Source: Isurus oxyrinchus (taxonomy: Eukaryota). Taken from it: a stretch of 64,000 nt of DNA. Below are positions 1 to 63,800 of this stretch, piece by piece (position 1 is the stretch's first letter; each line of letters starts with the position of its first letter). The stretch lies in assembly GCA_026770705.1 (NCBI GenBank), contig JANJGN010000039.1, forward strand, positions 4,340,001 to 4,404,000. Direction: 5' to 3'. Made by a program: the position numbers.

Positions 1-3000
1 TAAATTTAAGGATGAGGTAGGTGGATTTCTAAACTTTAAAGGTGTCAATGGGTAATGGGAAGGAGCGAGCGTATGCCATTCATGAGAGATAATCATATTG
101 AATTGCGGGGCAGGGTCACTGGTTGGGGATTGGTGGGATTCGCAGGGAGTGGTCTGAGTGGCCTACAGATGCTCCGATGATTCCATGATTCAATGTATCT
201 GAAAGTCGATGTAGGGACCATTTGAGCTAAATTAGAGGAAAGACGATGAGTCATGTTCAAGGAACCTATAACTCTTTAGACTTCCTGTTGAGAAACAGTG
301 TGCATCTGGACAGGTAGCACCGGCATTTTCGAAGTTCTGTTGAATTCAAAATGCCTATGTGAAAGAGACCGTTCATTTTGGAGTTAAAACAAAGAGTTTG
401 AAAGATAATGCAGTGGAGTGTTTGGACGCTTCAACCCTCTGGAATTCATCCAGATACCAGAACGTGCACATATTGATATCATAGTTGAATGTCAGAGAGT
501 CCAGTTGCCCTGTGGACTGGAAAGGATCCTAATCGGTGGGGAGTTTATAAAATGAGGACAAAACTGATTTAAAAGCGTTAAGTTTTTCAGTGATGTTTTT
601 GAATGTTATTGCTGCATGCTGCTGTTCACTTCTACTGTCAGCTATCAGGCCGCTATTCATACCCTGGTTGTTTTGAAATGTAGTTCAACAAGATCGAGCA
701 CCTCCCATGTTGAACTAAATTCTGCTTGCTTCTAAATAGGTGTTGTGTTGATGAATAATTCTTTCTGCATGTTTGTTTCAGTTCGAAAAGTTTCCTGTTA
801 TTGGAAAATGGGGAGTATATTAAAAAAGCCGGAGTAAGTAACATCGATCAACCTACGTAGCAATTGCATAGTATATGCACCATATGAAGTAGAGAAGCAT
901 TTCATCTCACTGGAGTTTTGAAGTAATTTCTCCTGAACTTTTAACTATCTATCAATCACACACGCATCCATTGCTGATTTCCTCACTCATCCTCTCTCCC
1001 AGTGTCTGAGACTGCGGGTGTTTAAACTTATTATAGCTCATTGGAAATTTGATTCTCATTGAAAGCAAATGAAGTACCAAATTTGCTCAGTGCAGAATAA
1101 CTGGAAGTTCAGCTTTGTGGAGAATTGTTCAGTTGAGTTTCATACTGGAGCTCGATCATGATTTAATTATTAAATAAGAAATTATTTTCTGGATTCCAAA
1201 TTAAAAGCATAAAAGTTCAGTTATACAATTTCAATAAAATACTATATAGGCTTACACAGTATTGTAATAAGCGATCTAAACATTCCTGCCGAAGTTTACA
1301 AAAATCTTTTCTCTTCCTCTTGCTGCTGCTGCCCTCTTTGTCCAGTTTTCAATGGAGACTCTCCGTGGAAATGACCACTGGTGATATTTTCTATATTTAC
1401 TCTATCCCAGCTCCAAAAGTTGAGCGTGGTGGGCTGCACCAGCATACTACAGGCTCCTGTCCCTGTAACGGTCACTATGAGTAAAATTCGCCCTATCTCC
1501 CCCCGCAATCTATGGTGCAGGGGATCAGGACCAGCATATCACTAAGTTGCCAAAAATAGAGCTCCACAACAGAACATAAAATAAAGTGAGAATATGGTAC
1601 AAATGCAAACAGTTAATGTTTTTCTAATCGTTTATTAAATCACAAAATTAGAAACACGGGATATTTCAGGGCATTCTTGAACTTATCTCGGAATTTCCTC
1701 TGTGTCACGCCATAAATGCAGGTGTTAGTGAAGCAACTTAGGAGCTGCAGCATGAAGCCCAGTTCCATCACAAACGCATCAAGAAATATTGCCCGATACC
1801 CCACATGAAACATCCGACACCATATAGAAAACAACATGAACACTGACCACAACAGGATGAAATTCACCGAGATGGAAAAGAGTAAAATTATAATTTCCTT
1901 CGGCTCTCTATCTCTTTGTCTCTGGGACATTCGCCACTGTTGTGAGCCCGGAGTCTCCTGCGGGCTCTATTTGTCACCAAGATTTGCCTGACGGTGAAAA
2001 TATTTAACAGCACAATCAGGACAAATGGGACACACGGGGTGAGAGTGTTATGGATGAACACAATTGACGACGAGACCAGAGAGAACTGAACATATATTGT
2101 GACAGAACAAAACCACGGGCTGTTAAAGAACCAATATCGAGTTCCAAGTATGAAATACCAGAAGATGTTGTTTGAGCAGCTCAACAGAGTGATAGTTAGC
2201 AGTACCACAGCTGCTGTTCGTTCAGTGCAAAACGTACTTTTCAGCTTCTGGCAGCAAATGACAACAAATCGATCAAAGGTGAAAGTGACGGTGACCAGAA
2301 TGAGCAATCAGTGGCTGCATAAAGCAGGACAGCGTGGATGTTGCACACAGGGACAGAATACTGAATGAAAGCAAATGTTTCCCTACAAACAATTGGAATC
2401 TGTCTCAATATCACGTCAAAGGTAACGACCAGCAAATCCGCCGATGACATGCCCACCAGGTAGGGAGTGACACATTTGGAGAGACCACAGTTTCTCAGTG
2501 AAGGGATCATAATTGTCACGAAGTTAACTGTGGGAGGAGAAATAAGCAGAAAACTTAGACATCAGGCAGGCAGGCAGCAAATATATCAGTTAGATGGAGG
2601 GAGGGCTAATTCATGTTTTCAATGTTGCTTAGTTTTCTATTGAAACAATTGCACAAGAAATAAAGGATGATGCAGAGAACTGTAATACACTGGAAGGCAG
2701 CAGGCGATAAACCACGAAAGATGATGCTGAAAATTTGAATTGTAATGCTGATAATCATCCTATAATCTCCATTTTCCCAGCCCGGTTGAAAAACAAAGCA
2801 ACCTCTAAAGGCTACATCACCTAGGAATGTTCAACATTTTGCACCATCAGCTTTATGTTGTCGGTGCAACACAAATATTGCAGCAGTGACTGAAATCACT
2901 GGGCTTGGTCATCTCAATATGTAATTTTAATGGCCGAGGTCTGAGGCAATTCATTTCTGGATGATGCATGGAAAAGGGAGAGAAAATAAACTGAAGGGTG

Positions 3001-60800: not shown

Positions 60801-63800
60801 AAGCCTATTGCCAGCTGTGCCTCTTTCCTCTTGTTATATCTTAAGTCCAACTTAATGGATTCTGCATTTCACGATCCGAGATACTTCATTGTTGTTGTGC
60901 AAATTCCGTCTCATACTAGCAACGCCATTCCAATCAACATTTCCTTACTGACTGTTCTATCTAATAGTCACAGACCAGTGAAAATGTTGTCCCCAAATTT
61001 GATATCCTTGTAACCAGGTTTCCTTAATGGCTGGCAGATTATTCCTATTAACATCTATATGTACCGTTAATTTATTTATTTTGTTGCAAATACTACGCAC
61101 TTTTAAGTAACAAGTTTAAAAAAAAAACATCCCCCCCTCCTCTTTGACCCAATTTGTTGCTCTTTTGTTTTATGTTTGTACACTCTGCCCCTTCCTGCAA
61201 CACTCAGGGTTCAATACTGCACATCAAAACGTGCCTTTCAAAGCTTCCACAACATTTTGCTTTGTTTGGCTCCGCATCTCCTCTCCAGAACTCTCCAATA
61301 TCACCCCACTACTACTTTGTTTAAAGCCGTCTCGGCGGTTATTCGAGCCATGGTAATTCGAGCCGAAAGGCAACAGGTCACAGCACGTTTCAAGTGAAGC
61401 CCATTCCACACCATCTTGACTTGTAAATATGTTACCGTTCGTTCAAAGTTGCTGTGTCAAAATCCTGGAACTTCTTCCGTAACAGTTCCTTGGGAGACTC
61501 AACACCGCATGGATTGTACTGGATCAAGAAGGCAGCTTAATTCAAGTTCAATCAGTGGTTGGCTATTCTTACTGGCATATCCAGCGATGTCCACATCCTA
61601 TGATTGCATGAAAATGATAATAGTTGGAGTGTCAGTGTCAGTGGGACAGCCAGCATTGCTCAGTCTATGCTGGCTGGAGGGACTGTGTCATGTATAGGGT
61701 CTGTTTAAGTTTCTGTCTATGTAGCTGTTGTAGAGCCTTCTTTTGTTGAAGGGTGTGTGCCTGTTGTTGGTTTTGTTGCTGTTGCAATGTCTGTTTTCGT
61801 TGGTGGGTCTGCATCAATTGAAGGGTTTGTCTCACGTGGAGGGTCTTTGTCAGTGGTAAGGCGCGTTTCTGTTGGGGGCTCAATTTTGTTTGCAGGATAT
61901 CTATGCATTTGAAGTTCATATCAGTTTAAGGGTTTTTATCTGTCAGAGGATGTGCATTGCGTGAAAGCTCAAGTATTCACTGTAGAGTTTAAAATGTTGA
62001 TAACCCGGTGGAGGATTTGTGTTGTTTGAGGTTTCAGTTTGGGTAATAATGCTTCTCGTGTTACTGTTATAAAAACAATGGGTGGCCAAATACAAAAAGT
62101 GAAGAGTTATTCTGTTCCACTCTCAGGCAGCGAGCCTTTGTAACATCCTTACAAATATCTGCATTGCAAGCCGAGTATTTCAATATTTATTCAAGGCGTA
62201 GACAGATTATTTACAATCTAAAAGCAGAAGGATATCTGCAACAGGTAACACGTTATATTCACATTAGCCATGAACTTACAGAATGGTGGAAGAGGCTCGA
62301 AGGGCCCAGACATTTACTCTCTTCGTAATCTGCATATTCTTACTTTATTTGTTTGAATTAGTTTAAGCTGTTGTATCACTTCAAACGTGCAATATTTCCT
62401 GGTGTTGAGTTATCTTCAGATGATTTATTTACTGAATTTTCTCATGAACAGTCAGCAATATCCCACTTTATTTGCTTATCAAATTGTTCATTTTTGAGGA
62501 GTGTAGCTGCACCTCTCAGTGCAGTAGAACAGCCCTCAAAGAGACACAGCAACAATTGGAATTTAATTACTGAATGGCCAGAGTCGAGTGAAGGGCATTA
62601 CTAAAGTAACATGGGATCTAGACTGAGCCTGATGGTGCTTGAATGGGCACAATTATTGGTTTGATAACGCAGCTTCATATTTTATTTGTTAACGCATGTG
62701 ATCAGAATTGTCCAGGCTTTGGAACTTTGCAACTCGAACTCTGGAAAATTATATTGCCTCACTGAACTCGATGTTGTAATCTGTTTGTTCAATTAAAAAC
62801 AAGAAATATGTTGAATAATATTTCATCATCAATATCCCCAAAGCGATCCCATACGGTATAAATTCATATATTTGAGAACTTAACACTTCAGGGTTTAATA
62901 CAGTGTTCGGAGAGATTACCTGCAGCGCAAAGGCGAGATTATTTCACACTGAAAATGCTGATGACATACCATAACTTCGCTAAAATATTCTGCGTGACTC
63001 TTGCCACTATTGGTGTTCCAGGTAAATCACTAAAACCACTGAAGTTGTCTAAATCTTTGTGAGCTGCTTTCTTGTTCGTCTTTTTAACTTAAAGCCAAAT
63101 GCTGACCTCTTCGTCACCAATATAAGGATACCGGAGAGGTGATATATATTATTTGGTGCAGTCAAATGTGTTGAATAATCTCTGCGGGTTTATTCTATGT
63201 CCACAACTGATAATAAGCCTCGGCTAGTGACTCACAGACTCGCTGCATTAGAGGGATTTCTTGTACTGCTGAATCCGACCTCCGTGAATGCAATCTCTCT
63301 GAAGGAAGTTGTCGGTGGGAATCACACTGAGTGTACGTTAGTCACCAGAGTGGAATAGCTGACTACATTGCAAACTTATTACTGAGAGTATCTGTAAGTG
63401 TAGATTTGTACAAAGCCGGTAACATGTATTACTCGTGGCATCTTTCAAAGTAGATTATACATGATTGTGGTTCACTAACTAGAATGGAATAGGTGACCCC
63501 AGTGACTATGCATTACTTGGAGTATCTGTCAGTGTTGAATTGTACTGATCATGGATCAATGACTGGAGATTTGGTTCTGTTTGGAAATCATGTATTGCTT
63601 TATTGCCAATGCTCTGTCCGTTTGATTAAGCTCCCTCTGTGTTTTACGAAAATAACAGTCCGAAAGCAGGATATGTTTTGCTGTTGGTTCAACGTGTTTG
63701 CTAAATTGATACATGAAGTGAAATGACTTCATATCGTGTTTTCTGTTTAACGGCTACAAGAAAATTAGCTCTAAATAAATAACTGAGGCTTAACAATAGT

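Follow-up and report, generated by a model that had tools for sequence, protein, structure and literature searches.

One of the nearest described comparisons for the genes reported here is GPR139, a G-protein-coupled receptor (GPCR) of class A. Passages in PMC5218887 and PMC6323244 report responses of both GPR139 and GPR142 to L-Trp and L-Phe, and GPR142 is treated there as a GPR139 paralogue and an aromatic amino-acid sensor (PMC6323244). According to sections of a 2025 review, GPR139 is single and highly conserved in vertebrates and is called orthologous to the invertebrate receptors for FMRFamide, MIP (allatostatin-B) and sex peptide (PMC12208981). For cartilaginous fishes, an excerpt of the whale-shark paper mentions a “relative paucity” of GPCRs (PMC8455134), and the corresponding section on the catshark gives 2 canonical odorant receptor (OR), 6 OR-like, 3 ORA, 3 trace amine-associated receptor (TAAR) and 2 TARL genes (PMC11979771). 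Here, we analysed a stretch of 64,000 nucleotides (nt) from Isurus oxyrinchus (assembly GCA_026770705.1, contig JANJGN010000039.1, positions 4,340,001 to 4,404,000 of the forward strand; hereafter the window, numbered from its first letter), for which an earlier note made from the sequence had proposed a birth-and-death cluster of GPR139/142-like orphan receptors. Overall, we put the probability at about 60% that this cluster is a piece of a cartilaginous-fish class A GPCR family that forms a repertoire for sensing a diversity of chemicals, which are probably external.

The window contains two intact genes, A and B, one pseudogenised second exon, P, and one lone first exon, D (Table 1). Open reading frames (ORFs) were listed stop-to-stop under the standard code, and the long ones on the minus strand span 13098-14066 and 38645-39652. 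A tblastn search with both long ORFs and a hidden Markov model (HMM) of the family run over six frames found, on the minus strand only, three bodies resembling exon 2, and an HMM of homologue N-termini, built from 49 canonical-length homologues, found three exon-1-like pieces; a fourth exon 2 was found nowhere in the window by tblastn or the family HMM. In A, B and D, exon 1 consists of ATG, 22 or 23 codons (23 in A, 22 in B) and one base placed directly before GT (donor sites GTAAGA in A, GTTAGT in B and GTAAAT in D). Exon 2 of P, A and B follows a pyrimidine tract and AG (...ttattacag in A, ...ttttacag in B) and begins with two bases of a codon. All six junctions present, three donors and three acceptors, are in phase 1, and the exons add up in frame to 70+878=948 nt in A and 67+965=1032 nt in B. 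The intron lies one codon before N1.50 of the first transmembrane helix (TM1), and exon 1 provides the outer half of this helix along with the start codon. Since the intron was kept, the copies are not retrocopies, and such an origin was rejected.

This design of two coding exons, a phase-1 intron and a near-absent N-terminus, which had been claimed for four loci, is complete in A and B and partial in P and D, and the N-termini of homologues align to exon 1. Exon 1 of P was not found in 2528-13097 by the N-terminus HMM, by nhmmer with a profile built from all three copies of exon 1 or by a pattern scan, and it may lie in the assembly gap upstream of P or have been lost. For D, no family match was found in 63022-64000, and its exon 2 lies beyond the end of the window. 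The outer limits given for the cluster, 1640 and 63021, are exactly the stop codon of P and the donor site of D. We also checked the three assembly gaps (runs of N) to which attention had been drawn: no exon and no family HMM match adjoins any of them, so that no reading frame crosses a gap. The link between exon 1 and exon 2 of A and the length of its ~5.5-kb intron depend on the scaffold; the second gap lies inside this intron. The frame of B runs about 23 residues past the end point of A, P and most homologues (38645-38720, minus strand), so that its C-terminal tail is longer.

Database searches and structure models used exon 2 by itself, while the only comparison of exon 1 was with the local N-terminus profile of the homologues. 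The products of A and B matched the Pfam family 7tm_1 (PF00001) with 52 and 65.2 bits, respectively, against a cut-off of 30.5, and both are class A (rhodopsin-type) GPCRs. The AF2 model of B exon 2, based on 138 aligned sequences (predicted local distance difference test (pLDDT) 89.9, predicted TM-score (pTM) 0.85), comprised TM1b-TM7, helix 8 and a hairpin in extracellular loop 2 (ECL2), and at least 500 GPCR chains of the Protein Data Bank (PDB) matched it at E<=0.001. A model of a full-length Heterodontus homologue (P0005, 69-70% identical to B, pLDDT 85.7) showed seven TM helices and helix 8. In this model TM1 begins at residue 3, which means that the extracellular N-terminus is nearly absent and bears out the very short N-termini suspected before. 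All microswitches (N1.50, D2.50, R3.50, W6.48, N7.49 and Y7.53) are present in B (N1, D30, R84, W225, N267 and Y271 in exon 2 numbering), as is the cysteine pair between TM3 and ECL2 (C59, C138). Position 7.49 is S instead of N in A and its whole orthogroup, and P6.50 and P7.50 are absent from the window proteins.

The best PDB sequence matches of both genes were human GPR139 chains (E 4.4e-10 for A; E 2.9e-7 and 30.8 bits for B). Foldseek likewise placed GPR139 first for the B model (E 1.1e-8, TM-scores 0.68/0.77, about 19-20% identity), with GALR2, NTSR1 and the mu-opioid receptor practically tied in E-value and TM-score, and with CCR and C3aR fitting the model about as well. Similar to GPR139 (7VUG, 9M42), the window proteins are class A receptors with the ECL2 cysteine that pairs with TM3, DR(Y/F), W6.48 and a TM7 motif N-x-x-x-Y that lacks the proline. 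However, GPR139 has W-A-P-R where the window proteins have W-S-V-N (no P6.50), its ligand residues are not kept in the family, and hundreds of divergent copies here stand against the single conserved vertebrate gene described in the sections cited of PMC12208981. With identities of 19-20% and E-values of 4.4e-10 and 2.9e-7, these comparisons indicate that the window genes are not orthologues of GPR139 or GPR142 and that the similarity is remote. The “GPR139/142-like” of the earlier note holds as far as GPR139 is the best PDB match, but it is a nearest-neighbour label only, at ~19% identity and with other receptors tied.

One Heterodontus family member carries the automatic name “GPR142”, and bona fide GPR139 or GPR142 was not among the best 150 cluster representatives listed. 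A database protein considered as GPR139, P0355, was rejected as such. The ESM Atlas returned generic class A neighbours and one “probable GPR139” cluster only. With respect to the invertebrate FMRFamide/MIP/sex-peptide group, amphioxus and nemertean “GPR139” proteins were distant matches of B (E ~1e-14), and a few family members bear Srw or Srx Pfam labels or the name “FMRFamide receptor-like”, but identity is only 26-32%.

The family to which the window genes belong is greatly expanded. With exon 2 of B as query, 3520 candidates were obtained, of which 2065 proteins reached E<=1e-10, and the best 120 of these were all from elasmobranchs. By hand count, these 120 comprised 75 proteins of Heterodontus francisci, 10 of Pristiophorus, 8 of Cetorhinus, 7 of Mustelus, 6 of Heptranchias, 4 of Scyliorhinus torazame and 3 of Chiloscyllium punctatum, the others being singletons or pairs. 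Nearly all were named “probable G-protein coupled receptor 139”, with a top identity of 70%. The expansion had been expected to appear in automated annotations, and it does so under this name, as a very large cartilaginous-fish family. With exon 2 of A as query, 967 proteins out of 4013 candidates reached E<=1e-10, and its own orthogroup comprises about a dozen proteins of 53-67% identity, one or two per species in sharks and rays, the next match reaching at most 46%. An exhaustive HMMER scan of 1.84 billion cluster representatives (50% identity) gave 864 matches at E<=1e-3, of which 179 reached E<=1e-10 and 109 reached E<=1e-30. Ten further representatives were looked up, of which nine were elasmobranch and one was from Callorhinchus milii, so that a holocephalan has at least one member. 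At least 97 distinct family proteins were found in Heterodontus; 27 of the 75 listed B matches and the best orthologue of A lie there on contigs of identical size (74,466,956), which suggests that A-type and B-type genes are neighbours in Heterodontus too.

We found no description of this expansion in a literature search that left supplementary tables, such as the tissue-specific gene lists of PMC11979771, outside its scope; this agrees with the earlier view of an uncharacterised family. A term search of the 2025 GPR139 review found no mention of “cartilaginous”, “paralog”, “duplicat” or “copies” (PMC12208981). In two RefSeq models, P0291 (Mustelus asterias, 1244 amino acids (aa)) and P0303 (Scyliorhinus canicula, 790 aa), the family sequence sits inside a larger protein; such models bear the names “sodium channel protein type 1 subunit alpha-like” and “integrin alpha-X-like”. 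Both are probably chimeric gene predictions, and automated annotation of the family is probably unreliable.

Trees placed the two intact genes in different subfamilies. In a FastTree analysis of 234 rows, the 225 cartilaginous-fish rows grouped together (support 97), with a 14-row clade containing A as sister to the other 211, and the 97 Heterodontus proteins fell into 33 single-species clades, the largest of 18, 15, 11 and 9 proteins. An IQ-TREE analysis of 54 rows supported the family at 99/96, with a clade of amphibian and sturgeon proteins as its sister (98/90). In this tree the clades of A (14 rows, 100/99) and of B (15 rows, 100/100) both contained sharks and rays, and P was found on a long branch within the large clade. 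As judged from these trees, A represents a conserved low-copy subfamily, B a massively expanded one and P a third old lineage. The Callorhinchus protein fell within the large clade in a quick tree, and more than one family member may have existed already before the split of cartilaginous fishes.

Beyond cartilaginous fish, the nearest matches were from coelacanth (29% identity), salamander (33%) and teleost (31%). A search with the salamander protein returned 25 proteins, namely 20 from amphibians (66-74%), one from sturgeon (46%) and four from elasmobranchs (32-33%); no amniote protein was among these 25. This amphibian and sturgeon gene, also annotated as “probable GPR139” (e.g. Pleurodeles XP_069092602.1), is the nearest outside relative of the family, with 32-33% identity to its members and a similar length of ~340 aa. 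In contrast to the shark genes, it is represented by one listed protein per species, and its pocket residues are invariant in 20 amphibians. It was rejected as GPR139 itself on its match to the human GPR139 chain (E 2.6e-13). A second “GPR139-like” lineage of bony vertebrates, comprising P0329 from a coelacanth (Latimeria) and P0343 from a teleost (Odontesthes), grouped apart from the amphibian and sturgeon gene in both trees. Judging from this placement, bony vertebrates may hold two distinct relatives of the family besides GPR139 and GPR142.

The paralogues differ mainly on their outer side. Among 121 proteins of the expanded clade, mean column entropy was 1.59 bits in the outer half of the receptor (132 columns) and 0.83 bits in the inner half (148 columns; Mann-Whitney p value = 1.5e-12), while 20 amphibian orthologues displayed the reverse (0.38 versus 0.63 bits). 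For 51 Heterodontus B-type paralogues with a mean identity of 74%, the outer/inner ratio was 2.49 (p value = 1.4e-14), the cytoplasmic half having only 0.42 bits. The motifs kept are CGLS in intracellular loop 1, D2.50, DRF, the base of TM6, W6.48, N/S-T-x-x-Y in TM7 and helix 8, and a typical family member departs from consensus at 2 of 82 conserved columns (127 canonical-length proteins). We thereby confirmed, in the three window copies and in the entropy of the family, that conserved cytoplasmic motifs go together with a variable outer face. The diversity is focused on the pocket: the most variable helix positions recur every 3-4 residues (3.28, 3.29, 3.32, 3.33 and 3.36; 7.31, 7.35, 7.39 and 7.43; 2.61, 2.64 and 2.65), and these positions of TM2, TM3 and TM7 are the ones that usually line the pocket in class A receptors.

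The same residues can be compared with the ligand site of GPR139, for which a mutagenesis study reports, in the sections cited, that 3x33, 5x43, 6x48 and 7x38 are highly important for activation and that the model pocket is lined by 3x29, 3x32 and 6x51, replacement of 3x32 by alanine being without effect (PMC5430874). In the expanded clade, positions 3x29, 3x32, 3x33 and 7x38 take ranks 2, 7, 15 and 13 in variability among 290 columns and hold 11-16 residue types. These four positions are invariant in amphibians, in which F3x33, N7x38 and a basic 6x51 are kept. At 6x51, 78 of the 121 expanded-clade proteins have Y, and R/K is not among the eight commonest residues. Where GPR139 has F3x33, H5x43, R6x51 and N7x38, B has F, D, N and Y, and 11-13 residue types occur among the 121 paralogues. 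These data bear on an alternative explanation, namely that the genes are ordinary GPR139/GPR142-like neuromodulatory or nutrient receptors, for aromatic amino acids or a neuropeptide, present in many and largely redundant duplicates. The rank of GPR139 as best PDB sequence match and top fold match speaks for it, as do the F that B retains at 3x33 and the single-ligand appearance of the A orthogroup and of the amphibian gene with its conserved 3x33, 7x38 and 6x51. However, GPR139 is only remotely similar (E 3e-7 to 4e-10, ~19% identity), its ligand positions belong to the most variable ones of the expanded clade, where the basic 6x51 is replaced, and redundant copies would not keep their frames intact while diversifying mainly in the pocket. 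We consider this explanation quite improbable.

Under the interpretation as a sensing repertoire, the common cytoplasmic machinery would couple all copies to one shared G-protein pathway, and the variable pocket residues in outer TM2, TM3, TM5, TM6 and TM7, ECL2 and ECL3 would give each copy its own ligand. That is, signalling would be common since the machinery is the same in all copies, and recognition would differ since pocket residues differ by paralogue; a role in sensing would follow from this ligand diversity. By its sequence pattern, A looks like a conserved single-ligand member and B-type genes look like the diversified part of the family. The variable extracellular face, put forward previously as the pattern of a repertoire, applies strongly to the B type but only mildly to the low-copy, conserved orthogroup of A, and in the comparisons made here repertoire behaviour appears strong only in the B type.

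A repertoire could also face inwards. The receptors might be carried by leukocytes or barrier cells and recognise pathogen or damage molecules or fast-evolving host peptides, as in the expansions of formyl-peptide, MRGPR and chemokine receptors. This explanation is equally compatible with the expansion, the lineage-specific bursts, the pseudogene and the diverse pockets, the galanin, neurotensin, opioid, CCR and C3aR structures match the B model about as well as GPR139 does, and some paralogues bear the automatic names “C-C chemokine receptor type 3-like” and “GPR15-like”. Such names, however, are nearest-neighbour labels, and no immune gene was found in the window by a Pfam scan of 91 further ORFs. 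Chemokine receptors bind their ligands via the N-terminus, and the near-absent N-terminus of this family is unlike them. We regard an internal immune-type repertoire as unlikely.

The pseudogenised locus that had been reported was confirmed in P. Its exon 2 carries two frameshifts, near 2293-2297 and near 1892-1896, with a stop after the second, and ends in a TGA at 1640-1642. When P was read with X at the frame breaks, it departed from consensus at 13 of the 82 columns whose conservation in 127 canonical-length proteins is 90% or higher, as against 2 for the median of the family and 7.7 for its 95th percentile, and its branch in the trees measured 0.9-1.0 against a median of 0.19-0.27. Assembly error was rejected as the sole cause of the frameshifts, since departures at conserved sites together with a long branch argue that the decay is real and not due to assembly indels alone. 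The window thus has one dead copy among its three copies of exon 2.

This proportion is in line with a further explanation, according to which the expansion is mostly genomic noise, that is, copies spread passively in repeat-rich large genomes, decaying or unexpressed and inflated by gene prediction. Repeats abound in the window, where the B intron holds retroelement remnants and many tandem arrays occur, some database models are chimeric, and many are of odd length (298-543 aa). On the other hand, the 82 columns stay conserved in 127 proteins with typically 2 departures, the cytoplasmic half is nearly constant over 51 paralogues of one genome at 0.42 bits, the intron is retained, and subfamilies persist in sharks and rays. 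We consider it highly improbable that noise accounts for most of the expansion.

Several points weigh against reading the cluster as a sensing repertoire. The protein sample consists of the best matches to two queries and is hence biased, the counts per genome are minimum values, and chimeras occur among the annotated models. The two halves of the receptor were separated by AF2 secondary structure and the anchors D2.50, R3.50, W6.48 and N7.49, not by coordinates. Variability was expressed as entropy and not as the ratio of nonsynonymous to synonymous substitutions (dN/dS), and relaxed constraint on the outer loops contributes to it. A mild outward bias is also seen in the A orthogroup despite its low copy number (outer/inner ratio 1.38, p value = 5e-4). 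When twelve divergent members were added to a quick tree, the base of the family was unresolved with respect to the amphibian clade. Finally, the three window copies are only 40-44% identical to each other, and they are old paralogues from three old subfamilies standing side by side, not fresh duplicates. The idea of a tandem birth-and-death cluster is borne out by the bursts in Heterodontus and by the dead copy, but not by the window copies as recent tandem duplicates.

Table 1 Receptor exons, introns, assembly gaps and a possible relic in the window (gap lines have no strand).
Feature	Position	Strand	Evidence or remark
P exon 2, pseudogenised, 888 nt	1640..2527	minus	Family HMM pieces E 2e-47, 4e-24 and 5e-23; tblastn in three frames
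Assembly gap 1, upstream of P exon 2, between P and A	6922..7107		No HMM match at edges
A exon 2, intact, 878 nt including stop 13098-13100	13098..13975	minus	Pfam 7tm_1 E 9e-14; family HMM E 5e-114
A intron 1, ~5.5 kb, phase 1, holds gap 2	13976..19478	minus	Splice sites and exon coordinates
Assembly gap 2, inside A intron	18658..18812		Adjoins (TG)n array 18835-19013
A exon 1 coding part, 70 nt, first half of TM1	19479..19548	minus	N-terminus HMM E 0.0055, profile positions 1-22
Assembly gap 3, intergenic, 1.85 kb upstream of A ATG	21400..21576		N run
Possible relic, 33 codons matching TM7/helix-8 end	28195..28293	plus	tblastn E 0.001; family HMM E 0.0012, profile positions 286-316
B exon 2, intact, 965 nt including stop 38645-38647	38645..39609	minus	Pfam 7tm_1 E 8e-18; family HMM E 4e-144
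B intron 1, 14.9 kb, phase 1	39610..54510	minus	Splice sites; retroelement remnants inside
B exon 1 coding part, 67 nt	54511..54577	minus	N-terminus HMM E 1.1e-6
D exon 1 coding part, 67 nt	62955..63021	plus	N-terminus HMM E 0.014

The remaining content of the window is mostly repetitive. Among the 91 further ORFs of at least 85 aa (8 + 83) compared with Pfam, only remnants of the RVT_1 domain and sub-threshold matches were found, and no other gene. One of these matches, UNC-79 at 2090-2365 on the plus strand (23.8 bits against a cut-off of 27), was rejected as an antisense-frame artefact opposite P. The B intron contains an RVT_1 match above the cut-off at 52064-52465 (minus strand, E 1e-7) and a second one below it at 40772-41035 (minus strand, E 0.005), with a 178-aa ORF without Pfam match beside these remnants (40209-40745, minus strand). 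The remnants lie on the same strand as B, and retroelement insertion probably explains why its intron is ~3x the length of that of A. Long (TG)n/(CA)n microsatellites and minisatellites (periods 23-157 and 33 nt) occur at 18835-19013, 42658-43026, 20524-21092 and 23912-24889, and the first of these, a (TG)n array, probably explains gap 2. The short plus-strand match to the end of TM7 and helix 8 is isolated, without any other family fragment around it, and marginal; it may have arisen by chance or be what is left of a fifth copy. B and D lie head to head, 8.4 kb separating their first exons, and 53-54-nt tandem arrays lie at 54993-55227 and 55678-55994 in the interval between them (54578-62954). 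A shared promoter motif was not apparent, as the upstream regions of the three ATGs, taken over 600 nt, had no 8-mer in common (0.12 expected from shuffles).

Among sensing repertoires, the family can be compared with the OR and TAAR families, which are known for large gene numbers, clusters, lineage-specific bursts, pseudogenes and pocket variability. The family resembles them in having many class A genes, clusters, lineage-specific bursts, pseudogenes, a variable pocket and a conserved G-protein side. It differs in that there is no sequence relationship beyond class A and in that an intron in TM1 splits the coding sequence, OR coding regions being intronless. A bolder proposal is that the family is the main odorant or external chemosensory repertoire of sharks and rays, a class A counterpart of the OR and TAAR genes apparently missing from these animals. 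It would have grown from a single-ligand receptor that, among bony vertebrates, amphibians and sturgeon would have retained in one copy, with no amniote among the matches of the salamander protein. We offer this proposal tentatively and consider it doubtful.

About 100 or more pocket-diversified class A copies in one shark genome are at odds with the picture of few odorant receptors, and they make the family a concrete candidate for an overlooked sensing system. The family also provides a natural experiment, in which a one-copy receptor with a frozen pocket in amphibians and sturgeon can be compared with its exploded relative in sharks and rays. If its members are expressed in the nose, in taste-like cells or in immune cells, the chemical sensing or the immunity of elasmobranchs would have to be redescribed.

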